NCBI GenBank assembly: GCA_964396175.1
Contig: CAYNEK010000026.1
Location: forward strand, 37,361 to 58,047
Origin: an uncultured Polyangiaceae bacterium
Lineage (GTDB): Bacteria; Myxococcota_A; Polyangia; Polyangiales; Polyangiaceae
Direction: 5' to 3'
DNA length: 20,687 nucleotides
Below the pieces are notes generated by a model. The model was not told where the DNA came from, did not search any database, and was given only the letters and a program-made list of their open reading frames with translations. Positions 2,747-13,587 of the stretch are shown here, piece by piece. The translations under genes were made by a program, and so were the position numbers. The stretch's first letter is position 1; every line of letters begins with the position of its first letter.

Positions 2747-4696
2747 ATGACGATCTCCGATCCTCGGCTCCGGCAGCTCCGCGACGAGCTCGCGCGCTCG
2801 ACGGTGGACGGGACCAGCAGGGTCGTCTTCCACCTCCGGGAGCTGCTCGGCGAGGGAGGGCAGGGTTGGGTGTACCGCGCCAGCTACGACGACCCGGACG
2901 GTCCGCCGATGGTCGTGAAGCTGCTTCGCCCGGACGTCGTATCGAACGACGCGCTCGCCCGGTTCCTCCGCGAGGCGGAGGTGCTGAAGAAGCTGTCCAC
3001 CCTGGCCCCGTCCCCGAGCCTCATCCGCTTCTTCGATCACGGGATCCACCGGATCACGATGCCGGACCGAGAGGCATACTCGATGCCGTTCATCGCCCTC
3101 GAGTATGTGCAAGGCACGAACCTGCAGAAGATCCTGGCCGAGCAGCCCGGCAAGGGGCTCCCGGCGGGGCGCACAAGGAGGCTCTTGCGCCAGATCGTCC
3201 GCGCCGTCTCGATGGTGCACGGCGCGCAGATCGTCCACCGAGACATCAAGCCATCGAACATCCTCGTCACGACCGAGGCGGGCGTCGAGGTGGCGAAGCT
3301 CACCGATTTCGGGCTCGTCAAGCGCTACGATATCGATGTCCGCGGCACCTTGATGATGGCCGGCGCGAGCACCGGCTACGCGCCGCCGGAGCAGTTCGAG
3401 GCCGGGAACAAGCGCGTCTCGGCGCGCACGGACGTCTTCTCGCTCGCCGCGGTGACGTACGAGTGTCTGACGGCGAGCGCCGCGTTCCCCGTCGCCGCTG
3501 CCGAGAGCGGGCTCCTCGTGCTGTCTCGCATGCTCTCCGGGGAGCGCCCCACGCTCGCCGCGAGCGGCACCACGTTGGCGCCCGAGCTCGCGGGGCGCGC
3601 GGATCTGATCGCCGCCATCGACCGCGAGCTCACCCGCGCGCTCTCAGCCGATCCCGATCAGCGACACGCCACGGTCGAGGAGCTCTGGGCTGCCATCGAG
3701 GAGTCGCTCCGGCAGGCCGAGCGCCCGTTCGGGTCGACCGCGCGCCTCGCGGCGGGTCCCCGCTCGAAGGCCCCTGGATCAGCGCCGTCGGCGGCCGCCG
3801 TGGCCCCGGTGACCCGCGCGCCCGACGTGCGCGTCGTCAGCTCGAGCCTCTTGCCCGAGACGGCGCGCGCGATCGCCTTCGCGCCCGACGGCCACACTGC
3901 CTACGCGCTCGGTCGGACCGCGCTCTTCCGCTTCCGGGGCGGGGTCTGGGCCCACGTGGTGCTCCCCGCGGGCTTCGACACGGCGGCGCTCACGGGCCTG
4001 CTCGTCTCGCCCGCGGCGGAGGTCGTGCTCTTCGGGCAGCGCGGCGCGCTCTTCGGGCTCTCGCCAGACGGCTCGCTGCGCCCGTGGGCCGCGGCGGATC
4101 CCGATCTGTCCTGGGTCGGCGGCGTGGTCGAGCGGAGCGAGATCCTCCTCGTCGGGACGAGCGCGATCCGCCGGGTGCCCGTCGTGGGGATCCTCCGGCA
4201 GGGCGGATCGCTCTCGACGGCGACGGTCGAGGGCTCTTCGCGCCTCCTCGCCGCGACGCGGCTCGAGAGCGGAAACATCCTCGCGTGCGGAGAGGCGGGT
4301 GAGCTCGCGGTGCTCGGCGCCGGACCCGCGCGCGGCCTCCCGTGGGGCCGGACGGGGCACCTCTTCGCGCTCGCGAGGACCGACGACGGTGTGCACATCG
4401 TCGGCACTGGCGGCCACGCGCTCCTCGTCGCCCGCGATCTCGGCGTGCGGCTCGAGCCCGTCCAGACGACGCGCGACCTCTTCTGCGTGACGGCGGAGGG
4501 AGGCCAGGTGCTCGCCGGAGGCACCGAGGGTCGCCTCGTCCGACGCACCCCCTCGGGCTGGACCCGCGTCCCTTTGCCGAAGGAGGCGACGGGCACCGTC
4601 CGCGCCATCACGATCGGCGACACGCACTTCACCTGCGCGCACGACGATGGCCTCGTCGTCGCCGGGAGGCTGGACGCCCTCGCACAGCGGGCGTGA
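2747..4696 (+). CDS. Hanks-type (eukaryotic-like) Ser/Thr protein kinase with a roughly 330-aa C-terminal Gly/Ala/Val/Leu-rich, beta-rich repeat region, possibly a beta-propeller. Start chosen at ATG 2747 (MTISDPRLRQ...); the track ORF begins further upstream at 2534.
   Basis: Gly-loop GEGGQGWVY, VAIK-like MVVKLL, catalytic loop HRDIKPSNIL, DFG (TDFGLV), APE-like GYAPPEQ. The start sits about 25 aa before the G-loop. Confidence 0.85.
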   Translation: MTISDPRLRQLRDELARSTVDGTSRVVFHLRELLGEGGQGWVYRASYDDPDGPPMVVKLLRPDVVSNDALARFLREAEVLKKLSTLAPSPSLIRFFDHGIHRITMPDREAYSMPFIALEYVQGTNLQKILAEQPGKGLPAGRTRRLLRQIVRAVSMVHGAQIVHRDIKPSNILVTTEAGVEVAKLTDFGLVKRYDIDVRGTLMMAGASTGYAPPEQFEAGNKRVSARTDVFSLAAVTYECLTASAAFPVAAAESGLLVLSRMLSGERPTLAASGTTLAPELAGRADLIAAIDRELTRALSADPDQRHATVEELWAAIEESLRQAERPFGSTARLAAGPRSKAPGSAPSAAAVAPVTRAPDVRVVSSSLLPETARAIAFAPDGHTAYALGRTALFRFRGGVWAHVVLPAGFDTAALTGLLVSPAAEVVLFGQRGALFGLSPDGSLRPWAAADPDLSWVGGVVERSEILLVGTSAIRRVPVVGILRQGGSLSTATVEGSSRLLAATRLESGNILACGEAGELAVLGAGPARGLPWGRTGHLFALARTDDGVHIVGTGGHALLVARDLGVRLEPVQTTRDLFCVTAEGGQVLAGGTEGRLVRRTPSGWTRVPLPKEATGTVRAITIGDTHFTCAHDDGLVVAGRLDALAQRA

Positions 4697-4902
4697 GCCG
4701 CGGTCACCACGCCGCGACCCGCTCCAGGCCTCGTGGATCGGCGCGCTCCACCGACAGACGCCGCACGAGGACACGCGATCGTCGAGGTGCGCCGCGCTGC
4801 GCGCGCCACGAGGCTCGCCGAGCCGCTCCTGCCTCCCGCCCCATACGCTGTCCACCTGGGACGGAATGCCGAATTTGCTTCTCAGCGGACCCGAGGGAGG
4901 TC

Positions 4903-5364
4903 ATGAGAGCCGTAATGATGGGCGACCGCCTTCTCGCGTCGACAGCGGCTCTGGCGGCGTGTGCGGCGCTCGTGTCGCCGGGCGCGTCCCCCGCGCGGGA
5001 GCTCGAGGCGCGTCTCCGCGCGGCCGCCGACGAAGACCCGATGGGGACGATGGCGACGGCGCTGCTCCTCGGCGGCGCGATCTTCTTCGCCGCCGAGCGC
5101 GGGGAGAACCCCAAGGTCACCTCCTTCGCCGACGCGCTCTATTTCGTCTCCACGAGCATGAGCGTCGGCTACTCGGACATCTTCCCGCGCACCGAGGCGG
5201 GCAAGCTCCTCTCGACGGTCCTCGCGGCGCTCGGGCCCGCGCTGACGGCCCGCGCGCTCGCCGACGCCAAGGCCCCCACGCGCGAGGACGACCGCGACGC
5301 CGCCCTGCTCGCCAAGCTCGACGAGATCCTGGTCGCGCTGAAGGACAGGCCCCAAGCGCCATGA
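4903..5364 (+). CDS. Small (153 aa) KcsA-like single-pore cation channel subunit (2 TM plus pore helix). The selectivity filter reads SVGYSD rather than TVGYGD. The stop TGA (5362-5364) overlaps the next gene's ATG as ATGA.
   Basis: GGAGG 7 nt upstream of ATG 4903. TM1 MATALLLGGAIFFAAE, pore FADALYFVSTSMSVGYSDIFP, TM2 GKLLSTVLAALGPALTA. Confidence 0.75.
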   Translation: MRAVMMGDRLLASTAALAACAALVSPGASPARELEARLRAAADEDPMGTMATALLLGGAIFFAAERGENPKVTSFADALYFVSTSMSVGYSDIFPRTEAGKLLSTVLAALGPALTARALADAKAPTREDDRDAALLAKLDEILVALKDRPQAP

Positions 5365-6152
5365 CGGAGCTCCTCCGCCTGGCGACCACCTTCCCGACGG
5401 TGGTCTTCACGGTGCTCGTCGGCGTCGTCCTCGTCTACTGGGCGTTCGTCATGCTGGGCGCGCTCGAGCTCGACGCGCTCGGCGGCGCCCACCACGCGCA
5501 CCTCGGCGACGTGGGGCACGACCTCGGTGACGTGGGCCACGGGCTCTTGCACGGGGGCCACGACGTCGGCTGCGCCGCACACGGCGCCCTGGACGCCGGA
5601 CACGACGTCGGAGACGCGAGCGACGGGGACACGCACGGCGACCACGGAGGCCAGGCGGCGCACGCCGCACACAGCGCCGGGCTGCTCGAGGCGCTGCGTC
5701 TGCGCTCCGCGCCGGTCACCGTCGTCGCGAGCCTCGTCGTCGTCTTCGCGTGGCTCGCGTCCGCGCTCCTCTCGTCGTGGTTCGGCTCGCCCCTCTGGCT
5801 CGCCCGCGCCGCGATCTTCGCGGGCTCCTTCGTCTTTGGCGTCCTCGCGACGTCGGTCGCGGTCCGCCCGCTCGCGCGGCTCTTCGTCACGCGCAAGGCG
5901 CGCGGCAACGCAGATCTCGTGGGGAAGGTGTGCGTCGTGCGCACCGGCGAGGTGACCGAGAGCTTCGGCGAAGGGGTCCTCGACGAGGGCGGCGCCTCGC
6001 TCGTCCTCCGCATCCGCCTCTCGGAGGGCGAGAGGCTCGCGCGCGGCGAGGAGGCGCTCATCCTCGAGTGGGACGCGCGCCGCGAGGCGTTCTTGGTCGC
6101 GCCCTTCGGGGACGTCCTCGCGCGCTCGGAGCGGCGCCCACCCAAGCGCTGA
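5361..6152 (+). CDS. YqiJ/NfeD-like inner-membrane protein: N-terminal TM helix, a His/Asp/Gly-rich repetitive loop ((L)GDVGH(D/G) repeats), further TM helices, and a C-terminal soluble beta (OB-fold-like) domain. It is the typical partner of flotillin/SPFH proteins.
   Basis: MTELLRLATTFPTVVFTVLVGVVLVYWAFVML (TM); HHAHLGDVGHDLGDVGHGLLHGGHDVG...GHDVGD; TMs VTVVASLVVVFAWLASALL / AAIFAGSFVFGVLATSVAV; C-terminal GKVCVVRTGEVTESFGEGVLDEGGASLVLRIRL. Architecture matches E. coli YqiJ-type NfeD short homologues; position immediately upstream of a flotillin gene. Confidence 0.75.
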   Translation: MTELLRLATTFPTVVFTVLVGVVLVYWAFVMLGALELDALGGAHHAHLGDVGHDLGDVGHGLLHGGHDVGCAAHGALDAGHDVGDASDGDTHGDHGGQAAHAAHSAGLLEALRLRSAPVTVVASLVVVFAWLASALLSSWFGSPLWLARAAIFAGSFVFGVLATSVAVRPLARLFVTRKARGNADLVGKVCVVRTGEVTESFGEGVLDEGGASLVLRIRLSEGERLARGEEALILEWDARREAFLVAPFGDVLARSERRPPKR

Positions 6153-6322
6153 GCTCCCCTCGGGCCCCGGCCGAGCCGTCGACCACCCAGGCCACTTCGC
6201 TTAGATCGTCGCTGTCGTCCCCTGCTCCGCGCGAGCGCGGCGGCGATCGTGACGGGGCTCCAAAGTTCGCTTATGCCTACATCGTCCGCTCGCCTCTTCC
6301 ATCCTCGGGATCCTCTGCTGCC

Positions 6323-8194
6323 ATGCCCAACATCCTCCCCATTCTCGTCGTCGTGGGCGTCCTCGCCTTCGTGCTGCTCGGCGTCATCACGCTCGTCAGC
6401 CGGTTTTATCGGCAGGTCGACCAGGGCAAGGCGCTCATCATCAACACGCTCCGCTCCGAGCCGGTCGTCACCTTCACGGGGGCGGTCGTCTACCCGGTCA
6501 TCAACCGCGCCGAGGTGATGGACATGTCCGTCAAGATCATCGAGATCGATCGACGCGGGAAGGAGGGGCTCATCTGCAAGGACAACATCCGCGCCGACAT
6601 CAACGTCAACTTCTTCGTGCGGGTGAACAAGACCGAGGAGGACGTCCTCAAGGTCGCGCAGTCCATCGGCTGCCAGCGCGCCTCCGACCCGGCGACGCTC
6701 TCGTCGCTCTTCGCCGCGAAGTTCTCCGAGGCGCTGAAGACCGTCGGCAAGCACTTCGACTTCCAAGAGCTCTACAAGATGCGCGAGGAGTTCAAGGACC
6801 AGATCATCAAGGTGATCGGCAAGGATCTCAACGGGTACATCCTGGACGACGCGGCCATCGACTACCTCGAGCAGACGCCGCTCGAGTCGCTCGATCGCAA
6901 CAACATCATGGACGCCGAAGGCATCCGAAAGATCACGGATCTCACCGTCGTACAGAACCTCCAGACCAACGAGCTCCGCCAGAAGGAGCGCATGGAGACC
7001 GGCAGCCAGAACCTGAACGCCGACGAGGCGATCTTCCGTTTCGAGCAGCGGCGCGCCGAGGCGGAGGCCAAGAAGAACAAGGAGATCGCCGTCGCTCAGG
7101 CCCGCGAGGAGAACGAGGGCGCGCGCATCGCGAGCGAGGAGCAGAAGAAGACCGCGCTCGTCTACGAGAAGAACCAGGAGGAGGCGCTCGTCGCCGCCGA
7201 GACGAAGACGCGCGGCGTCGCCATCGCCCAGAAGAACCGCGAGCGCGAGATCGGCGTCGAGGAGGAGCGCGTGCAGAAGGCCCGGCAGCTGGAGGCCATC
7301 CAGCGTGAGCGCGAGGTCGCCCTCGTCAGCATCGCCAAGGAGAAGGACGTCGAGGTCGAGAAGAAGGCCATCGCCGACGTCATCCGCGCCCGCATCGCCG
7401 TCGACAAGACCGTCGCGACCGAGGAGGAGAGCATCAAGGATCTCCGCACCGTCGCCCAGGCGACCCGCGAGAAGGACGTCATCCGCCTCGCCGCCGAGGC
7501 CCGCGCCGAGGAGATCCGCGTCCGCACCGTGAAGTCCGCCGAGGCCGAGGAAGAGGCCGCGAAGTTCGAGGCGCGGAAGAGGGTCTTGCTCGCGGACGCC
7601 GAGCTCGAGACCGCCGACAAGACCGCGCGGGCGAAGCAGCGGCTCGCCGAGGGCATCCAGGCCGAAGAGGCCGCCTCCGGGCTCGCGAAGGCCCGCGTCC
7701 GCGAGGCCGAGGCGGTCGCGATCGAGAAGACCGGGCAGGCAGAGGCCTCCGCCCTCCGCGAGCGCATGGTCGCCGAGGCCGAGGGCCTCACCCAGAAGGC
7801 CAACGCGATGCACGCGCTCGACGCGGCCGGCCGCGGCCACGAGGAGTTCCGCCTCCAGATCGAGAAGGAGAAGGCGGTCGATCTCCGCGCGCTCGACGTG
7901 AAGAAGGAGCTCGCGGTCGCTCAGGCCGAGGTGCTCGGCAAGACCCTCGGCAACGCGAAGATCCAGATCATGGGTGGGGACGGGCAGTTCCTCGAGCGCT
8001 TCGTGAAGGCCGTGTCGGTCGGCCAGTCGATCGACGCCTTCGTCGACGAGAGCAAGACCGTGCAGGGGATGCTCGCCGAGGTCGTGAAGGAGGGCTCCCC
8101 CGCCGCGAAGAAGGTCGCCGAGGTCCTGCGCACCGTCGCCGAGGCCGATCCGAAGCTCCGCGCGAAGCTCGGTGAGACCCCCGCCGATCGATGA
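6323..8194 (+). CDS. Flotillin family (SPFH/Band-7, YqiK/FloT-like) protein, 623 aa: N-terminal TM anchor, SPFH domain, long Ala/Glu/Lys/Arg-rich coiled-coil flotillin region. Start chosen at ATG 6323 (MPNILPILVVVGVLAFVLL...). Its stop overlaps the next gene's start as ATGA (8191-8194).
   Basis: TM MPNILPILVVVGVLAFVLLGVITLV. SPFH core KALIINTLRSEPVVTFTGAVVYPVINRAEVMDMSVKIIEIDRRGKEGLICKDNIRADINVNFFVRVNK. EA-rich heptad region from about aa 240 to 520. C-terminal KIQIMGGDGQFLERF. Confidence 0.88.
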   Translation: MPNILPILVVVGVLAFVLLGVITLVSRFYRQVDQGKALIINTLRSEPVVTFTGAVVYPVINRAEVMDMSVKIIEIDRRGKEGLICKDNIRADINVNFFVRVNKTEEDVLKVAQSIGCQRASDPATLSSLFAAKFSEALKTVGKHFDFQELYKMREEFKDQIIKVIGKDLNGYILDDAAIDYLEQTPLESLDRNNIMDAEGIRKITDLTVVQNLQTNELRQKERMETGSQNLNADEAIFRFEQRRAEAEAKKNKEIAVAQAREENEGARIASEEQKKTALVYEKNQEEALVAAETKTRGVAIAQKNREREIGVEEERVQKARQLEAIQREREVALVSIAKEKDVEVEKKAIADVIRARIAVDKTVATEEESIKDLRTVAQATREKDVIRLAAEARAEEIRVRTVKSAEAEEEAAKFEARKRVLLADAELETADKTARAKQRLAEGIQAEEAASGLAKARVREAEAVAIEKTGQAEASALRERMVAEAEGLTQKANAMHALDAAGRGHEEFRLQIEKEKAVDLRALDVKKELAVAQAEVLGKTLGNAKIQIMGGDGQFLERFVKAVSVGQSIDAFVDESKTVQGMLAEVVKEGSPAAKKVAEVLRTVAEADPKLRAKLGETPADR

Positions 8195-11100
8195 CCGACG
8201 AGGCGAAGCCCGCCGAGCCCGCCCAGAAGGCCGCGTCGGACAGCGGGGGAGGCTCGGTCCTGCGCCGTCGGCGAGAGGCCGCCGCGCGCGAGGTGCTCGA
8301 GAAGGCCCGGGCGCTCGACGAGAAGCGGAAGGGCCTCTTCGGCGGCCAGGAGCAGAAGTTGCTCGGCGTCACGCGGACGCGCACGGAGCAAAACGCCGTG
8401 CCGCGAGACATGGCGCGGGTCGGCGAGACGATCCTCGTCGGGTACGAGGTCTTCCTCGGTCTGTCACGCGAGATCGACGTCGCCCAGGTCTTCGGGCTGA
8501 GCCAGCTCCTCCAGGCGGACGGCGGCTTCGAGCTGTCCCCGGTGCCCATCGCGTCGCACGCGCCTTACCTCGCCGACGAGGCCTTCGTCCGCGACTTCAC
8601 GAGCACCTTCCGCTACGCGACGGGCGCGCGGGTCACGGAGCTTCGCCGCACGGACGAGCGGCTCCTCGTCGTCGTGCGGTCCGGTCGAGACGACGCGGAT
8701 CGCAAGGTCTTCCGCTGGGTCATCGACGGCAAGGGCAACGTCAAGTACCTGGACGCGCGCGGAGAGGAGGATCTCACTCCGCCAGCGGCGCACCCCTTCG
8801 CGTGGAAGCAGACGACGCGCGACGATCAGGTCGGCGGGAAGTTCCCGCACATCGCGATCGACGACACGCTCTTCGTCGAGACGATCGGCGGCGACCTCAC
8901 CGTCAAGATCGAGAACAACACCACGACCGGGCTCGGCGTCTACTCGGAGCCCGTCGACGACCCGAACCAGACGCTCGATGACGCGGACATCGCGTGGGCC
9001 AAGGTGGGCGGGCTCTACGTCGTCAAGCTGCGGCCCTTCCGCGAGACGGTCACGCGCTACCTCGTCTTCGATCCCATCACGAGGTCCATCCGCCGCGTCG
9101 ACGCGCTCGGCGTCGCGTGCCTGCCGCTCCCGGAGGACCAGGGGCTCATCTTCCCGGGCGGGCTCGCCCTGCGCGGGGTCGGGGCCAAGGTGCTCGACGG
9201 CGTCCCGTCGGATCTCATCCCCATCGCGCGCGTCGCGTCGCCCAACGGCGAGGACGTGCTCTTCGCCTTCTTCCGCGAGAAGGACGGGCTCTACCTCCTC
9301 CTCCCGTACAACGCGCTCCGCAAAGAGCTCGCGCCAGCGATCGTCTGTCACGGCTACACGCTCCTCGACGACGGGACGCTCCTCTCCTTCCGCGCAGGGG
9401 ACGAGCCGGCGCGCGTCCACCCCGTGCAGGTCTGGCAGACGCCCTTCGGCTCGGCGGACGCCGAGGCCGATCGACCGCTCACCGGGAGCTTCCTCGAGAA
9501 GATCGGCAACCGCGATCTCGTGCGCGGCCTCGCCGACGCGCTCTCGGTCGGCAAGGCGGGGCTCGTGTGCGACACGCGCGAGCGGCTCCTCGAGCTGGTC
9601 CGCGCCGTCGGGCGCGCCGCCGACTCCCACCACTGGCTCGGCCACGCCGAGGCCGGGGATCTGCTCTCGTCGCTCGTCGCGCTCCGGAGCGCCGCCGAGG
9701 CCGCGATGGACGAGATCGAGCGCGATCTCGCCCTCGCGCGTGAGGCCGAGGCAGAGACCGCGAAGATTGAGGCGGCGATCGAGGCCGGCCTCCACGACCA
9801 CGCACCCGAAGCGCTCCGCGATCTCGACGCGGTCACCAAGGCGCTCGTCTTCGTGCGCTCCCAGCGCGGCAAGCTCGTCGCGCTCGGCGAGCGGCGCGGC
9901 GCGTCCAAGGAGCGCCTCGTCGCGGCGCTCGAGCGGCTGAAGGAGCACGAGGCCGGCGTCAGCAAGACGGCGGCGAGCTTCCTCGCCGAGGGCGAGGCGT
10001 TCGCCCCGCTCTTGAAGGGTTTCGACGCGCTCGAGCGCGAGGCCCAGGGGGTGACGACCGTGCTCGGGCTCGCGCCGCTCCGCGAGGCGCTCGATCGCGG
10101 CGCCGAGGGGCTCGTCGCGTTGCAAGAGCTGTCGGCGGGGCTCGCCGAGGACGACGCGCCGCTGCGGACCAAGATCGCCCAGGGGCTCGGCCACGCGCTC
10201 GCCGCGAAGAACCGCGCCGACGCCGTGCTCACGGGGCGGCGCCGCGAGCTAGCGATGGCGGAGGGGCGCGCCGAGCTCGCCGCCGAGCTCTCGCTCTTTG
10301 GACAAAACGCCGCGGCCGAGGTCGCCCAAGCCGACAGCCCCGAGGCCTGCGACGCCGCGATCGCCCGGCTCGGCACGACGCTCGCGACGATCGAGGCTCG
10401 CTTCGCCGAGCTCGTCGATCTGCTCCCCGGCGTCGAGGAGAAGCGCGAGGAGGCCGTCCGCGCCCTCTCCGACAAGAAGAAGCGGCTCGTCGAGGAGCGC
10501 GCGCGTCGCGCCGAGGCGCTCTTCGAGGCGGCGTCGCGCCTGTCGAAGGTGGTGCTCGAGAAGGCGAAGTCGCTCCCCGAGGCCGACGCCCTGCACGGCT
10601 TCTTCGCCGCCGATCCGATGGTCGAGAAGCTCCGCGGCCAGATCCGCGCGCTCGCCGCGCTGGGTGATGGCGTGCGGTCGGCGGAGCTCGAGACGCGGCT
10701 CGCGGAGGCGAAGGAGGAGGCGTTCCGCGCGCTCCGTGATCGGGCGGATCTCTTCGAGGACGGGCAGCGGCTCATCCGGCTCGGGGCGGCGCGCTTCCTC
10801 GTGCACGAGGGCAAGCCCGAGCTGGTGCTCGTCCCGCGCGGCGATGGGGTCTCGGCGCACGTGCTCGGCACCGATCTCTACGTCCCGGTGCGTGACGAGG
10901 CGCTCGTCCGCGAGCGCGCGCTCTTCGCGTGGGAGGTGCCGTCCGAGACGCCCACGATGGCGCGCGCGGCGTTCCTTGCGGGCTCGCTCCTGCTCGCGCG
11001 AGGAATCCTCACGCCCGTCGACGACTCCGCCATCGACGATCTCGTCCGCGAGGCGGCGATGGCGCGGCTCGACCAAGGCTACGATCGCGGCGTCCACGAC

Positions 11101-13587
11101 GTCGACGCGGCCGCGATCTTCCGCGCGCTCGTCGGCGTCGCGAAGCTCGGCGGGCGGCTCCTCCACCGGCCCGACGTCCGCGCCTTCGCGTGCATGTTCT
11201 TCGCGGGCCTCGCGCCCGAGGCGCGCGAGCCGTGGGTGGTGCGCAGCCGGAGCGCAGGACGGCTCACGCGCACCTACGGCGCCTACGACGCCGAAGAGCA
11301 GCTCGCGAGGGAGCTCTCGGGCGCGCTCCGTGAGGCCGCGGCGTCGCTCGGGTTCGATCCTTCGCTCGCCGAGGAGGCCGCCACGTACCTCGTGGTCGAG
11401 CTCGGTCTCGACGAGCTTCGCTTCGTCCTCTCTGGAGAGGCCTCGGCGCTCTCGCAGGCGCTCCTCGCCGATCTCGACACGCGCGGGGCGCGACGCGCCT
11501 TCGAGGCGGATCTCCGCGCGCTCGACGCGCGCCCGAAGGATCGCCTCGAGGTGGCCGAGAGCCACGTGCGCGCCTTCCTCGCGGCGCGAGAGGACTCCGA
11601 GCACACGCGCTGGGCGAAGGAGGCGGCCGTGTCGCTCGCGACGCCGCGCCTGTCTCGCGCCGTCTCGTCCGCGCGGACCGCCTTCGCCGTCGAGGGGTTG
11701 CTCTCGCTCCACCCGACCATCGAGGGGCGCGCGCTGCGCGGCTACGCGGACGAGCTGCTCGCCGAGGTGCGGCGCCACGAGCGCGACGATCTCCCGAGGT
11801 TCCGCGCCTTCGCCGCGAAGAAGGGCGAGGTGCTGGCGAGCGAGGAGAAGCGGCTCGGGACCAAGGCGTTCGCGCCGCGGGTGCTCTCGACCTTCGTCCG
11901 CAACCAGCTCGTCGACGAGGTCTACCTCCCGCTCATCGGGAAGAACCTCGCGAAGCAGATCGGCGCCGTGGGCGACGGGGCGCGCACCGATCGCATGGGC
12001 CTGCTCATGCTGCTCTCGCCGCCCGGGTACGGCAAGACGACGCTCCTCGAGTACGTCGCCGACCGGCTCGGTCTCGTCTTCGTCAAGGCGAACGGCCCGT
12101 CCCTCTCGTCGAAGACGACCTCGCTCGATCCCGCCGCGGCGCCCGATCGCACCGCGCGCGAGGAGGTGCAGAAGATCGCGCTCGCCCTCGAGATGGGGAA
12201 CAACGTGATGCTCTGCCTCGACGACATCCAGCACACGAGCCCCGAGCTGCTCCAGCGCTTCGTGTCGCTCTGCGACGGGCAGCGGCGCATCGAGGGCGTC
12301 TTCGACGGCGAGCCGCGGACCTGGGACTTGCGCGGCAAGCGCTTCTGCGTGGTGATGGCCGGCAACCCCTACACCGAGTCGGGCGAGCGCTTCCGCGTGC
12401 CCGACATGCTGGCCAACCGCGCCGACACCTACAACCTCGGCGACGTGCTCGAGGGGCGCCGCGAGGTCTTCGAGCGCTCGTACATCGAGAACGCGCTCGC
12501 CTCGCACCCGCTCCTCGCGCCGCTCACCGGCCGCACGCGCGGCGATCTCGACAGGCTGCTCCGGCGCGCGGCGGGCGAGGAGATCGCGGTGTCGGCCTTC
12601 GATCATGCCTTCGGCGAGGCCGAGGTGGCCGAGCTCGAGGCGCTCCTCCGGCACATGATCCGCGTCGAGAAGACGCTCCTCATGGTGAACGAGGCGTACG
12701 TGCGCTCGGCGTCGCAGGCGGACGCGTACCGGACGAGCCCGCCCTTCAAGCTCCAGGGCAGCTACCGCAACATGGCGAAGATCGCGGACAAGCTCTCGCC
12801 CGCCATGACGGCCGAGGAGGTCGAGCGGGTGATCGACGATCACTACGCGAGCGAGTCCCAGACGCTCACGCAGAGCGCGGAGGAGAACCTGCTCGCCCTC
12901 CGCGAGCTGCGCGGGCGCCTCGACGAGAAGGGCAAGGCGCGGCTCGAGGCGATCCGGGCGGCCTTCGTGCGGCGTGTGCGTCAGGGCGGCGCCGAGGCCG
13001 ATCCGGCGACGCGCGTGACCGGCGGGCTCGAGGGGATCGAGACGGAGCTCGCGAGCCTCGGCAAGACACTGACGACGCTCGCGCAGCCCAAGGAGGCTCC
13101 TCCCGCGGCGCCCGCCACCGACGGCGCGCTGAACCTCGCGATGAGGGAGCTCGCCGTCTTGGAGCAGCTCGTCCAGAACATGCCCCCGCCCGCGACCGCC
13201 GCCGCCAGCGACCCGCGAATCGACGAGATCTCCGCGGCGATCCGGCGGGTCGAGGCGTCGTTCTTCACACTGCCGCGCGGCGAGACGACGGACATCGAGC
13301 TCGGCCCCGCGACGGAGTCGAACTTTTACGACGGCATGGGCGGGGTCTTCGTGGACGGCGGGGTCTTCGTCGCGACGTACGCGAAGGCGCCCGCGGTGGG
13401 GGCGCGGGTGTCCTTGCGGCTGGCCTTCCCGGACGGCGTCGTCGAGGCGAGCGGGATCGTCGCGTTCGTGCGCGAGATGCTCGCGGGGGGTGGGATCCCT
13501 GGGTACGGGGTGCGGCTCGCCGAGACGCCGGAGCTTCGAGCGCGGGTCGAGCACTTCACGAGGCTCCGAGCGCCCGACGTCGTGTGA
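8191..13587 (+). CDS. Giant (1798 aa) multidomain protein, translationally coupled to the flotillin gene. It has an N-terminal roughly 450-aa globular region of unknown function and extended Ala/Glu/Leu/Arg-rich coiled coils (about aa 480-1000). A MoxR-class AAA+ ATPase module sits at about aa 1260-1420 (Walker A SPPGYGKTT, Walker B VMLCLDD, sensor region FCVVMAGNPYTESGERFRVPDMLANRA). A PilZ-like domain (TIGR02266-type) forms the C-terminus.
   Basis: Uninterrupted ORF with strong GC3 bias. P-loop at nt about 12019-12045; Walker B at about 12214-12235. The NPxxExG...LPDxLxxRx signature resembles MoxR/AAA_3-AAA_5. The C-terminus has FYDGMGGVFVDGGVFV...GARVSLRLAFPDGVVEASGIVAFV...GYGVRL, like PilZ beta-barrel strands ending in a G-hydrophobic-G motif. 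Confidence 0.8.
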   Translation: MTDEAKPAEPAQKAASDSGGGSVLRRRREAAAREVLEKARALDEKRKGLFGGQEQKLLGVTRTRTEQNAVPRDMARVGETILVGYEVFLGLSREIDVAQVFGLSQLLQADGGFELSPVPIASHAPYLADEAFVRDFTSTFRYATGARVTELRRTDERLLVVVRSGRDDADRKVFRWVIDGKGNVKYLDARGEEDLTPPAAHPFAWKQTTRDDQVGGKFPHIAIDDTLFVETIGGDLTVKIENNTTTGLGVYSEPVDDPNQTLDDADIAWAKVGGLYVVKLRPFRETVTRYLVFDPITRSIRRVDALGVACLPLPEDQGLIFPGGLALRGVGAKVLDGVPSDLIPIARVASPNGEDVLFAFFREKDGLYLLLPYNALRKELAPAIVCHGYTLLDDGTLLSFRAGDEPARVHPVQVWQTPFGSADAEADRPLTGSFLEKIGNRDLVRGLADALSVGKAGLVCDTRERLLELVRAVGRAADSHHWLGHAEAGDLLSSLVALRSAAEAAMDEIERDLALAREAEAETAKIEAAIEAGLHDHAPEALRDLDAVTKALVFVRSQRGKLVALGERRGASKERLVAALERLKEHEAGVSKTAASFLAEGEAFAPLLKGFDALEREAQGVTTVLGLAPLREALDRGAEGLVALQELSAGLAEDDAPLRTKIAQGLGHALAAKNRADAVLTGRRRELAMAEGRAELAAELSLFGQNAAAEVAQADSPEACDAAIARLGTTLATIEARFAELVDLLPGVEEKREEAVRALSDKKKRLVEERARRAEALFEAASRLSKVVLEKAKSLPEADALHGFFAADPMVEKLRGQIRALAALGDGVRSAELETRLAEAKEEAFRALRDRADLFEDGQRLIRLGAARFLVHEGKPELVLVPRGDGVSAHVLGTDLYVPVRDEALVRERALFAWEVPSETPTMARAAFLAGSLLLARGILTPVDDSAIDDLVREAAMARLDQGYDRGVHDVDAAAIFRALVGVAKLGGRLLHRPDVRAFACMFFAGLAPEAREPWVVRSRSAGRLTRTYGAYDAEEQLARELSGALREAAASLGFDPSLAEEAATYLVVELGLDELRFVLSGEASALSQALLADLDTRGARRAFEADLRALDARPKDRLEVAESHVRAFLAAREDSEHTRWAKEAAVSLATPRLSRAVSSARTAFAVEGLLSLHPTIEGRALRGYADELLAEVRRHERDDLPRFRAFAAKKGEVLASEEKRLGTKAFAPRVLSTFVRNQLVDEVYLPLIGKNLAKQIGAVGDGARTDRMGLLMLLSPPGYGKTTLLEYVADRLGLVFVKANGPSLSSKTTSLDPAAAPDRTAREEVQKIALALEMGNNVMLCLDDIQHTSPELLQRFVSLCDGQRRIEGVFDGEPRTWDLRGKRFCVVMAGNPYTESGERFRVPDMLANRADTYNLGDVLEGRREVFERSYIENALASHPLLAPLTGRTRGDLDRLLRRAAGEEIAVSAFDHAFGEAEVAELEALLRHMIRVEKTLLMVNEAYVRSASQADAYRTSPPFKLQGSYRNMAKIADKLSPAMTAEEVERVIDDHYASESQTLTQSAEENLLALRELRGRLDEKGKARLEAIRAAFVRRVRQGGAEADPATRVTGGLEGIETELASLGKTLTTLAQPKEAPPAAPATDGALNLAMRELAVLEQLVQNMPPPATAAASDPRIDEISAAIRRVEASFFTLPRGETTDIELGPATESNFYDGMGGVFVDGGVFVATYAKAPAVGARVSLRLAFPDGVVEASGIVAFVREMLAGGGIPGYGVRLAETPELRARVEHFTRLRAPDVV

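Follow-up and report, generated by a model that had tools for sequence, protein, structure and literature searches.

In a genome fragment from an uncultured Polyangiaceae bacterium, a small gene resembling the pore of a potassium channel precedes genes for an NfeD/YqiJ-like protein and a flotillin, and the segment corresponding to its selectivity filter reads S-V-G-Y-S-D. This locus raises the questions of what the small gene encodes, whether the altered filter is peculiar to one organism, and what the flotillin has to do with it. We addressed them in the window, which is the whole 20,687-nucleotide stretch of DNA that was analysed, and in homologues from other genomes and metagenomes. All features described below lie on the + strand, and positions are those of the window.

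The reading frame of the channel-like gene (4903..5364) and its 153-residue translation were as the first-pass annotation had given them, and so was the ATGA overlap (5361..5364, read from the sequence) that couples its stop codon to the start of the NfeD/YqiJ-like gene. Close spacing of these two genes recurs in four loci (L027, L028, L038 and L154). The start codon is uncertain, because a Shine-Dalgarno-like GGGAGG (4895..4900, also read from the sequence) lies only 2 nt before the ATG at 4903, and homologues begin at M6, the ATG at 4918. The same GGGAGG is 14-17 nt before the ATGs at 4915 and 4918, and the protein may be 148 residues long if translation starts at 4918. The region is at 72% GC and is overlapped by many long spurious open reading frames, which in a genome so rich in GC raises the suspicion that this gene too is a spurious frame or a pseudogene, or that its unusual serine arose from a sequencing or assembly error. 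Against a spurious frame, third-position GC was 0.93 in the channel frame and 0.715 in the antisense frame, with neighbouring genes at 0.95-0.96, and the Pfam match given below exceeds its gathering threshold. The codon for S91 is TCG, which is two substitutions from any glycine codon (GGN) and thus not the product of a single-base error. In addition, a protein identical in sequence is present on 13 independent contigs, and the filter motif is conserved across homologues. The codon, the contigs and the family-wide motif rule out a pseudogene or a sequencing error, and we regard an artefact of any of these kinds as next to impossible. A scan of positions 4600-8400 for sigma-70 promoters and terminators yielded a single promoter-like site, in antisense orientation, and no more terminator-like sites than chance would give.

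Profile searches placed the protein among potassium channel pores. Residues 50-121 matched Pfam Ion_trans_2 (PF07885) with E=2.2e-12 and a score of 47.1 bits, where the gathering cut-off is 22.5, and the PDB sequences matched by phmmer were only K+ and NaK pores (KCNQ2, Kv4, KcsA and NaK). An hhalign alignment to KcsA had a probability of 92% and spanned the whole pore. An AlphaFold2 model (pLDDT 78.5) contained helices at residues 46-65, 75-88 and 98-119 and a C-terminal helix, and its best 50 Foldseek matches were all K+ channel pores. The layout of TM1, pore helix, filter and TM2 that had been proposed from the first reading is backed by the Pfam match, the KcsA alignment and the model together. 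In the monomer model the pore helix runs on through S87-V88, where an extended filter would be expected. From the profile matches and the predicted fold, we conclude that the product is one subunit of a 2-TM pore protein of the KcsA kind.

The N-terminal region (aa 4-44; 4912..5034) is predicted to form two helices (residues 4-24 and 30-44, pLDDT 55-76). It ends at the conserved R39 and D45-P46, all three of which are invariant in an alignment of the 24 closest relatives. The outer helix M1 (aa 46-65; 5038..5097; pLDDT 83-94) aligns to M1 of KcsA and ends in the invariant E65. A short turret follows (aa 66-74; 5098..5124), with the signature N69-P70-K71-V72; N69 and K71 are invariant in the close-homologue alignment, and among 239 family sequences the asparagine is found in 100% and the proline in 94%. 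The pore helix (aa 75-86, D77-A78-L79 ... T84; 5125..5160) lacks one residue compared with KcsA, KCNQ2 and NaK, and so departs from canonical K+-selective channels, in which the stretch from the aromatic cuff to the filter has a fixed pore-helix length. The phmmer alignment to KCNQ2 and the hhalign alignment to KcsA each place the gap after F81, whereas for NaK the deletion was found by manual comparison only; within the family the length of the pore helix is constant. The inner helix M2 (aa 98-119; 5194..5259) is predicted at about 22 residues, eight fewer than M2 of KcsA. It carries G100-K101 and G111-P112 (5233-5238), all four invariant, and G111 aligns to the KcsA hinge glycine G99, with the eight-residue deletion directly after G111-P112 in the hhalign alignment. 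A predicted C-terminal amphipathic helix (aa 127-147; 5281..5343; pLDDT 85-89), with conserved L139, D140 and L146, is paired by hhalign with the helix at the C-terminus of KcsA. We also considered that LAAC (aa 17-20) could be the lipobox of a lipoprotein signal peptide, which would invert the topology. This reading was rejected, because the motif is shared with the closest homologue only, and in the other family members charged residues break up what is a short hydrophobic stretch.

The protein can be set beside two kinds of known minimal channel. With KcsA, the 160-residue 2-TM K+ channel of Streptomyces lividans (fold match 1k4c), it shares M1, pore helix, filter and M2, a G-[KR] after the filter, and the hinge glycine, and its predicted C-terminal helix aligns to the one that forms a four-helix bundle in KcsA. 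It differs from KcsA in that its filter reads SVGYSD instead of TVGYGD, its pore helix and turret are each one residue shorter, and its M2 is without the eight post-hinge residues that form the region of the bundle-crossing gate in KcsA. The N-terminal region, about 45 residues long, differs as well, and the linkage to a flotillin gene is conserved. Viral Kcv-type K+ channels (82-94 aa) are minimal 2-TM pores whose TM helices are very short and which lack a canonical bundle-crossing gate on the cytoplasmic side. Likened by description, they resemble the window protein in their minimal pore and short helices, whereas they keep the canonical G-[YFL]-G and have neither the cytoplasmic N- and C-terminal helices nor the flotillin context.

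Canonical K+ channels require the second glycine of the filter, and this position is a near-invariant glycine in selective channels. The filter homologue of the window protein, S87-V88-G89-Y90-S91-D92 (5161..5178), departs from the canonical signature T-[VI]-G-[YF]-G at the first residue, which is serine, and at S91, which replaces the second glycine of GYG. It is not a NaK-type filter (T-V-G-D-G-N) either, since the tyrosine is kept and the change sits elsewhere. The motif, read correctly at the first pass, recurs in homologues: all 24 close relatives have SVGY[S/A/H]D, with SVGY..D invariant in their alignment, and the orthologues, far from lacking any filter-like motif, conserve S-V-G-Y-x-[DN]. 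Among the best 150 members of the family, SVGY is kept in roughly 90%, and seven residues (S, A, D, G, H, C and T) occur at the fifth position of the filter. In a sample of the family drawn without bias, roughly 90% likewise retain T84 and the hinge glycine. A neighbour-joining tree of 239 sequences implies at least 37 changes at position 91, while P46, E65, N69, DAL, T84, GK and GP are near-invariant across the family and GYG members are otherwise like GYS and GYA members. The first-pass annotation was right that GYS is non-canonical in having lost the second glycine, but serine is just one of the residues found at this evolutionarily labile position, and GYS is no unique oddity.

Altered filters of other channels give an indication of what such a change could do. 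A filter loses its selectivity when it has fewer than four contiguous sites, and in NaK from Bacillus cereus (filter TVGDGN), considered here with its variants NaK2CNG and NaK2K, an altered outer filter lowers the number of contiguous sites and abolishes K+ selectivity (PMC3082925). NaK, one of the PDB sequence matches, is likewise a prokaryotic 2-TM tetrameric cation channel with a changed outer filter. In NaK, however, the tyrosine and the residue after the second glycine are altered and both glycines are kept, whereas the window protein keeps the tyrosine and has the second glycine replaced. The same glycine-to-serine change at the second glycine of hERG, G628S, drastically reduces the current (PMC11974032).

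The gene that follows (5361..6152) encodes a 263-residue NfeD/YqiJ (DUF1449)-like membrane protein that has a linker rich in His, Asp and Gly and an OB-fold at its C-terminus, and the next (6323..8194) a 623-residue YqiK-type flotillin of the SPFH class. For both neighbours, searches of Pfam, NCBIfam and PDB sequences (phmmer) gave no match, so their identities come from BLASTP to E. coli YqiK, profile-profile comparison and fold search. The AlphaFold2 model of the 263-residue protein (pLDDT 76.8) has a beta-barrel at residues 190-248, and its best Foldseek matches were YbbJ in the QmcA-YbbJ complex (8z5g), 1510-C (3wwv; TM 0.77, rmsd 2.3) and YuaF (2k14). Its hhalign comparison to E. coli YqiJ reached a probability of 76% (E=2e-5), four of 32 relatives match Pfam YqiJ_N, and relatives are named "DUF1449 family protein" in the source databases. 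The flotillin is 28% identical to E. coli YqiK over 430 residues (E=1e-34, BLASTP), and 30% identical over its full length to a protein annotated with Band_7/Flot (E=9e-49). These results support the YqiJ/NfeD and SPFH identities assigned to the two genes from the letters of the sequence, and they expose a blind spot of annotation, in that Pfam Band_7 misses the flotillin of the window. Downstream, and overlapping the flotillin stop by an ATGA, a gene at 8191..13587 encodes a 1798-residue protein with DUF3686 (Pfam, E=8e-152), DUF7902 and an AAA ATPase domain; the pair of flotillin followed by DUF3686 recurs in at least nine other loci.

We then asked how regularly the channel family and flotillin occur together. 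Loci from 69 species representatives were compared, of which five were uninformative. A flotillin gene was nearby in 47 of the 64 informative loci, in three arrangements: directly upstream on the same strand (40 loci), divergent (4 loci), or in the window's order of channel, yqiJ, ..., flotillin and DUF3686 (3 loci). Linkage was found at all seven informative Chloroflexota loci and all three Planctomycetota loci, although identity between the flotillins of these two phyla and the flotillin queries from Myxococcota is no higher than 32-36%. Relatives bearing GYG were equally linked (33 of 39 informative metagenome loci), which rules out that the link is particular to the glycine-to-serine change. 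At about a quarter of the informative loci, no flotillin gene lies within 10 kb. In 12 flotillin-less loci, a four-iteration jackhmmer search for a divergent SPFH gene found none, and the neighbours there, judged from translations read by eye, look unrelated (an MgtE-like gene, a 248-residue protein, secreted proteins). The channel gene had been described as heading the flotillin cluster, which holds at the window but is a minority arrangement, most family members lying directly downstream of flotillin. Likewise, the suggested survey of channel genes near yqiJ-like genes uncovered strong linkage across phyla, with flotillin and not NfeD as the constant partner. We conclude that the linkage of the family's genes to YqiK-type flotillin is conserved and tolerates rearrangement; an NfeD/YqiJ protein is often encoded as well, and the window's type of module additionally has the DUF3686/AAA ATPase.

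When 1.84 billion representative sequences were searched with a profile (E<=1e-10), about 220 clusters at 50% identity were collected, from Myxococcota, Chloroflexota and Planctomycetota. Literature searches on the GYS filter, DUF3686, Ion_trans_2/Band_7 and flotillin-potassium channel operons found no prior description, and this bacterial family of flotillin-associated mini-channels is previously undescribed. As a separate matter, PADLOC defence-system models did not match the channel, the NfeD protein or the flotillin and gave only a marginal AAA match for the ATPase (E=0.0067), and an anti-phage defence system was set aside for want of a PADLOC assignment.

Several known systems combine some of these features. 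One group comprises the SPFH/NfeD operons of E. coli (yqiJ-yqiK, qmcA-ybbJ) and B. subtilis (yuaF-floT) and the HflK/C-FtsH cage. Like such operons, the window has genes for a YqiJ-like NfeD protein and a YqiK-like flotillin, and it differs in adding a channel gene and a DUF3686/AAA ATPase translationally coupled to flotillin; SPFH/NfeD operons are not known to contain a channel gene, and a 2009 survey of prokaryotic SPFH operons mentions none. Among eukaryotes, SPFH proteins pair with ion channels in stomatin-ASIC, MEC-2-MEC-4, podocin-TRPC6 and STOML3-Piezo. The likeness is the coupling of an SPFH protein to an ion channel, which in the window is suggested by operon-like adjacency. The eukaryotic channels are of other families and genetically unlinked to their partners, and the SPFH partner in the window is a YqiK-type flotillin. 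A parallel in gene arrangement is the FArhodopsins, a divergent rhodopsin clade defined by a conserved flotillin gene cluster, with key residues that are degenerate or, in some members, lost (PMC10308929). Both are offshoots of a membrane transport family with a flotillin cluster and decayed functional residues; the FArhodopsins are 7-TM proteins of SAR11, HIMB59 and Pseudothioglobus, whereas the window family has a 2-TM K-channel pore domain and occurs in Myxococcota, Chloroflexota and Planctomycetota.

Taken together, the explanation we favour, at a probability of roughly 0.55, is that the protein is a flotillin-partnered, tetrameric KcsA-like pore with a weakened K+ filter. SPFH proteins build cages that confine a membrane patch (PMC12478178) and enclose clients with it (PMC12478178, PMC2636767). 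The channel tetramer would sit in such a patch, enclosed on the cytoplasmic side by a flotillin cage, and its cytoplasmic N- and C-terminal helices would touch the flotillin/NfeD assembly; we infer this contact between channel and flotillin from gene neighbourhood only. Because the shortened M2 would leave the protein with no KcsA-type bundle-crossing gate of its own, the activity or placement of the pore might be set by the flotillin assembly. In the filter, the preserved carbonyl and hydroxyl layers of S-V-G-Y (sites 2-4) could still bind cations, while a residue other than glycine at position 91 would perturb the outermost site or sites, so K+ would be expected to pass with reduced K+/Na+ selectivity, low conductance or both. 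The family may have begun with a GYG filter or may coexist with GYG forms, and it would be drifting away from strict K+ selectivity.

The filter could also be a decaying relic. On this account, which the first-pass annotation had named as a non-conducting alternative, a former K+ pore domain now serves as a structural subunit that does not conduct; as a tetramer it would anchor the assembly of flotillin, NfeD and in some cases the DUF3686 ATPase in the membrane, or act as its adaptor or nucleator. The second-glycine position is unconstrained, the equivalent hERG change strongly impairs conduction (PMC11974032), and there is a precedent in flotillin-associated rhodopsins, which apparently lost the ability to bind retinal and have kept their flotillin linkage (PMC10308929). 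Its weight is increased by three clusters whose filter is gone (P0134, SGGSAS; P0137, AASSTD; P0168, GAAPSS). They retain P46, E65, N69, DAL, T97, GK, GP, the leucines of the C-terminal helix and the same length, and all three lie in the window's type of module, in which the channel-like gene is followed by a yqiJ-like gene and a flotillin 71-76% identical to that of the window. Where a filter is lost and the protein kept, the module's need for the protein may not be ion conduction. Fully filter-less members are few, however, at about six of 173. A mere anchor would not explain why S-V-G-Y, T84 and the hinge glycine are kept in most of the family and are invariant in the 24 closest relatives, and members with a fully canonical GYG filter core are linked to flotillin just as often. 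We therefore treat a purely structural role as possible but doubtful.

If instead the one-residue-shorter pore helix, common to all members, lets Ser91 be tolerated, the protein could be an ordinary K+-selective housekeeping channel, and its adjacency to flotillin could be inherited synteny or co-localisation of no regulatory meaning. The general likeness of GYG and GYS/GYA members would fit this, as would the 12 species loci with no flotillin nearby. Passive synteny is not expected to behave as the adjacency does, which has outlasted both the deep divergence of the flotillins across phyla and three gene orders, one of them divergent. A position that is near-invariant in selective K+ channels has, moreover, changed repeatedly here. 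For these reasons we consider an ordinary channel improbable.

Returning to the flotillin-partnered pore with a weakened filter, a broader and more speculative extension is that several phyla carry a hard-wired pair, consisting of a cage built from flotillin (SPFH) and a minimal pore that is tetrameric and has no gate of its own. In such a pair the cage might gate or position the pore, or the pore might nucleate the cage, making it a prokaryotic, genetically linked prototype of stomatin/MEC-2/podocin-type regulation. The channel would then be caught in conversion to a structural component of the cage, from GYG through GYS/A/D/H to no filter. We hold this possibility only tentatively. The locus bears on what bacterial flotillins and SPFH cages hold and do, and on how animal SPFH proteins modulate ion channels. 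A small channel-like protein without soluble domains, whose gene travels with flotillin across three phyla, is a defined candidate client in a system of two or three components, and the pair is suited to testing how flotillin-type proteins act with ion channels. The family also offers a mutational scan made by nature at the second filter glycine: while the minimal scaffold and its shortened pore helix stay constant, the position is S, A, D, H, C, T or G, or the whole filter is gone, and this variation bears directly on the number of sites needed for K+ selectivity.

The channel gene lies at 4903-5364 on the + strand of a window with a GC content of 72%, in which overlapping ORFs are abundant. 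The GC3 of this ORF was 0.93, matching the neighbouring genes (0.95-0.96) and unlike the antisense ORF on the same DNA (0.715), a codon bias that marks it as a real gene. It encodes the 153-aa protein described in the first-pass annotation, and 13 contigs from several sequencing runs record the identical protein. Reading the sequence, we also found the reported filter-like stretch, S87-V88-G89-Y90-S91-D92, at nt 5161-5178 (+), and the reported ATGA coupling at 5361-5364 (+), where the TGA stop of the channel gene (5362-5364) overlaps the ATG (5361-5363) of the NfeD/YqiJ-like ORF. S91 is encoded by TCG, and reaching any glycine codon would take two substitutions. Translation could start at either ATG 4903 or ATG 4918: a gap of only 2 nt separates the SD-like GGGAGG (4895-4900, +) from ATG 4903, and in homologues the protein starts at the residue equivalent to M6 (ATG 4918), so the protein may be 148 aa long instead of 153. 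Directly upstream, a gene at 2747-4696 (+) encodes a Ser/Thr protein kinase whose long C-terminal region lies outside the kinase domain; this adjacency is not conserved in other loci.

All comparisons agreed with the original identification of a K+-channel pore. Residues 50-121 matched Pfam Ion_trans_2 at 47.1 bits (E=2.2e-12; gathering score 22.5). A phmmer search of every PDB chain returned only K+/NaK channel pores (KCNQ2, Kv4, KcsA, NaK), aligned with a one-residue gap in the pore helix of the window protein, and profile comparison with KcsA gave 92% probability. An AlphaFold2 model with 24 homologues as input (pLDDT 78.5; >90 over residues 51-80) predicts helices at residues 4-24, 30-44, 46-65 (M1), 75-88 (pore helix), 98-119 (M2) and 127-147, and the top 50 Foldseek matches of this model in the PDB were all K+ channel pores. 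G100-K101 aligns with KcsA G88-R89, G111 with the gating-hinge G99, and the C-terminal helix with that of KcsA. Relative to KcsA, the window protein lacks one turret residue, one pore-helix residue and the eight residues that directly follow the hinge. With these three deletions, M1 (~18-20 residues) and M2 (~22 residues) are predicted to be very short, and the region of the KcsA bundle-crossing gate is absent. The protein has short helices like the viral Kcv mini-channels and a non-canonical outer filter like NaK, although the Kcv and NaK motifs are both absent. We conclude that it belongs to the K+-channel pore-domain superfamily and would work like the other members. It departs from canonical K+-selective channels in two of their defining features, the second glycine of GYG and the pore-helix length, and from KcsA-type channels in one, the long gate-forming M2.

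A word-indexed search identified 24 relatives (41-100% identity, all ~140-165 aa). The filter-like motif that orthologues had been expected to share was present in every one as S-V-G-Y-[S/A/H]-D, and GYG in none. Searched with a profile, 1.84 billion cluster representatives yielded 1914 hits at a cut-off of E<=1e-3, of which 220 reached E<=1e-10 and 75 reached E<=1e-30. Roughly nine in ten of the best 150 keep the S-V-G-Y core, and about six have no recognisable filter; S or A is commonest at the fifth filter position in this set, followed by D, G, H, C and T. We placed 239 family sequences on a neighbour-joining tree, computed with the column for this position left out, and on that tree the residue changed at least 37 times. 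These 239 sequences were drawn by motif-based scans, which makes their S-V-G conservation a matter of construction; also invariant, and not by construction, are P46, F61, E65, N69, D77-A78, T84, G100-K101 and G111-P112. The pore helix is one residue shorter in every family member, GYG members included. Because the fifth position is labile across the family, GYS is one state of a position that has a preference for small or polar residues but is otherwise unconstrained, and no private oddity of the window gene.

The 263-aa and 623-aa products encoded after the channel had no match in Pfam, NCBIfam or PDB-sequence searches. By BLASTP, the 623-aa protein (6323-8194, +) was 28% identical to E. coli YqiK over 430 residues (E=1e-34), and it was 30% identical over the full length to a protein annotated with Band_7 and Flot (E=9e-49). 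Relatives of the 263-aa protein are named 'DUF1449 family protein' by source databases, 4 of 32 match Pfam YqiJ_N, and the family profile matched E. coli YqiJ with 76% probability. Its AF2 model combines TM helices and a C-terminal beta-barrel with a disordered linker rich in His, Asp and Gly, and its best PDB fold matches were YbbJ in the SPFH-NfeD complex QmcA-YbbJ (8z5g), the OB-fold of 1510-C, a stomatin operon partner (TM 0.77), and NfeD YuaF. Given these matches, the labels first assigned to the two neighbours, flotillin and YqiJ/NfeD, are correct.

Individual homologue look-ups revealed three gene arrangements: channel, NfeD, flotillin, DUF3686 (the window and locus L014); NfeD, small SPFH, channel, flotillin, DUF3686 (L008 and L011); and channel directly after flotillin (L005). 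The motif [ST]T[SC][ML]SVGY[SA]D occurred at 69 loci in a scan that represented each GTDB species by a single genome. Most of these loci are from Polyangiales and other Myxococcota; Chloroflexota contributed nine, Planctomycetota three and a MAG labelled Alphaproteobacteria one. Flotillin was sought nearby by tblastn and four-iteration jackhmmer. Flotillin was directly upstream of the channel on the same strand in 40 of the 69 loci, three had the order channel, yqiJ, ..., flotillin, DUF3686, and in four the channel was divergent from a yqiJ-flotillin-DUF3686 unit. Elsewhere the channel stood behind a DUF8575 gene (three loci), was followed by yqiJ without flotillin in range (two) or was without flotillin within 10 kb (12), and five locus sequences were too short to judge. 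Flotillin-linked loci are therefore 47 of the 64 informative ones, including 7/7 from Chloroflexota and 3/3 from Planctomycetota, phyla whose flotillins are only 32-36% identical to the Myxococcota queries. A metagenome scan for GYG-bearing members (SVGYGD[IT][FY]A; 66 loci, 39 with enough upstream sequence) found flotillin immediately upstream on the same strand in 33 of the 39 assessable loci. Since GYG-bearing members are also linked, flotillin linkage is a property of the whole family, whatever the filter state. The first-pass annotation had suggested that the channel is the client of an SPFH/NfeD pair; of these two, it is flotillin and not the NfeD protein that is the constant partner.

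Several loci carry additional genes. In L008 (1588-2136) and L011 (8041-8592), an extra 182-aa protein between the yqiJ-like gene and the channel is weakly similar to the N-terminal SPFH part of flotillin. Chloroflexota loci have a ~150-aa, apparently coiled-coil ORF between flotillin and channel (L047 4953-5465, L048 6667-7101, L051 9402-9896). In the minority not beside flotillin (L012 1247-2620, L017 8530-9885, L019 and L020; L049, L070, L073 and L074 around 8500-11200), some channel genes immediately follow the gene of an HExxH-containing DUF8575 protein, and others have an MgtE-like gene, divergently transcribed, and the gene of a conserved 248-aa protein as their flanking neighbours.

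Three family protein clusters have lost the filter completely, with S-G-G-S-A-S (P0134), A-A-S-S-T-D (P0137) or G-A-A-P-S-S (P0168) in place of S-V-G-Y-S-D. The genes are at L151/L152 192-653, L154 606-1070, L156 4405-4803 and L157 464-862, and independent sequencing runs record P0134. All three clusters keep the same length, P46, E65, N69, D-A-L, T97, G-K, G-P and the C-helix leucines. A yqiJ-like gene follows in 3/3 clusters, and in P0134 and P0137 a flotillin comes next that is 71-76% identical to the window flotillin; the P0168 contigs stop short of any possible flotillin position. The protein is thus retained in the window-type module even where the filter is gone, and its role there must be filter-independent at least in part.

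SPFH proteins (HflK/C, QmcA, flotillin, prohibitin) form cages that confine a membrane patch (PMC12478178). From the fold, near-fixed S-V-G-Y, labile fifth position, shortened pore helix and M2, and flotillin/NfeD linkage shown above, we propose that the channel protein forms a tetramer in a membrane patch that a YqiK-type flotillin cage encloses from the cytoplasmic side, where its N- and C-terminal helices would be free to touch the cage or NfeD. Because the protein is without a bundle-crossing gate, its control or placement would depend on the flotillin assembly. The retained S-V-G-Y layers would still bind cations, and a non-glycine residue at 91 would perturb the outermost site, so the pore is expected to be poorly K+-selective or of low conductance. 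K+ selectivity in tetrameric cation channels needs four contiguous filter sites, and filters with two or three are non-selective (PMC3082925). We give this composite reading, a caged, flotillin-dependent tetramer with such a pore, a probability of about 0.55.

Alternatively, the protein could serve the flotillin module as a structural subunit that does not conduct, or could be on the way to that role. The filter-less members favour this, as do hERG G628S, in which serine replaces the second filter glycine, current is drastically reduced and the outer filter widens in simulations (PMC11974032), and the flotillin-associated rhodopsins, whose retinal binding has apparently been lost (PMC10308929). 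However, S-V-G-Y, T84 and the hinge glycine are strongly conserved in ~90% of the family, and we regard this alternative as somewhat unlikely. An ordinary K+ channel whose synteny is merely inherited is a quite improbable account. A typical genome probably has only a handful of SPFH genes among thousands, and passive synteny can hardly account for adjacency this frequent, found across phyla and in several gene orders. That the gene is an artefact or pseudogene is exceedingly improbable.

Prokaryotic SPFH genes are described in operons with NfeD genes, with no channel mentioned (PMC2636767), and our full-text literature search found no paper on a channel gene in flotillin/NfeD operons, on a GYS filter or describing DUF3686. 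Conceptually, the flotillin-associated rhodopsin family comes nearest as a precedent. The window gene on its own is a modest finding. More interesting is the family, in which flotillin and a pore protein form a pair that is hard-wired across phyla and the selectivity filter shows a natural series of apparent decay; this makes questions of SPFH clients and SPFH-channel coupling directly testable.

The flotillin at 6323-8194 escapes Pfam Band_7/Flot, NCBIfam and PDB phmmer despite its YqiK match, so standard annotation would overlook this subfamily, which is always followed by DUF3686. In the window, the 1798-aa DUF3686+DUF7902+AAA ATPase (8191-13587, +) starts at an ATG that overlaps the flotillin stop (ATGA), and the flotillin-then-DUF3686 pair occurs in at least nine other loci (L008, 5257-11478; L014, L022, L027, L028, L038, L062, L064 and L066). 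The pair recalls HflK/C-FtsH, where an SPFH cage is combined with an AAA+ client. The low-complexity linker of the YqiJ-like protein, HHAHLGDVGHDLGDVGHGLLHGGHDVG... (5484-5657, aa 42-99), is predicted to be disordered (pLDDT <50) and could bind metal; it is His/Asp/Gly-rich, and the equivalent linker in L008 is Gly/Ala/Glu-rich instead.
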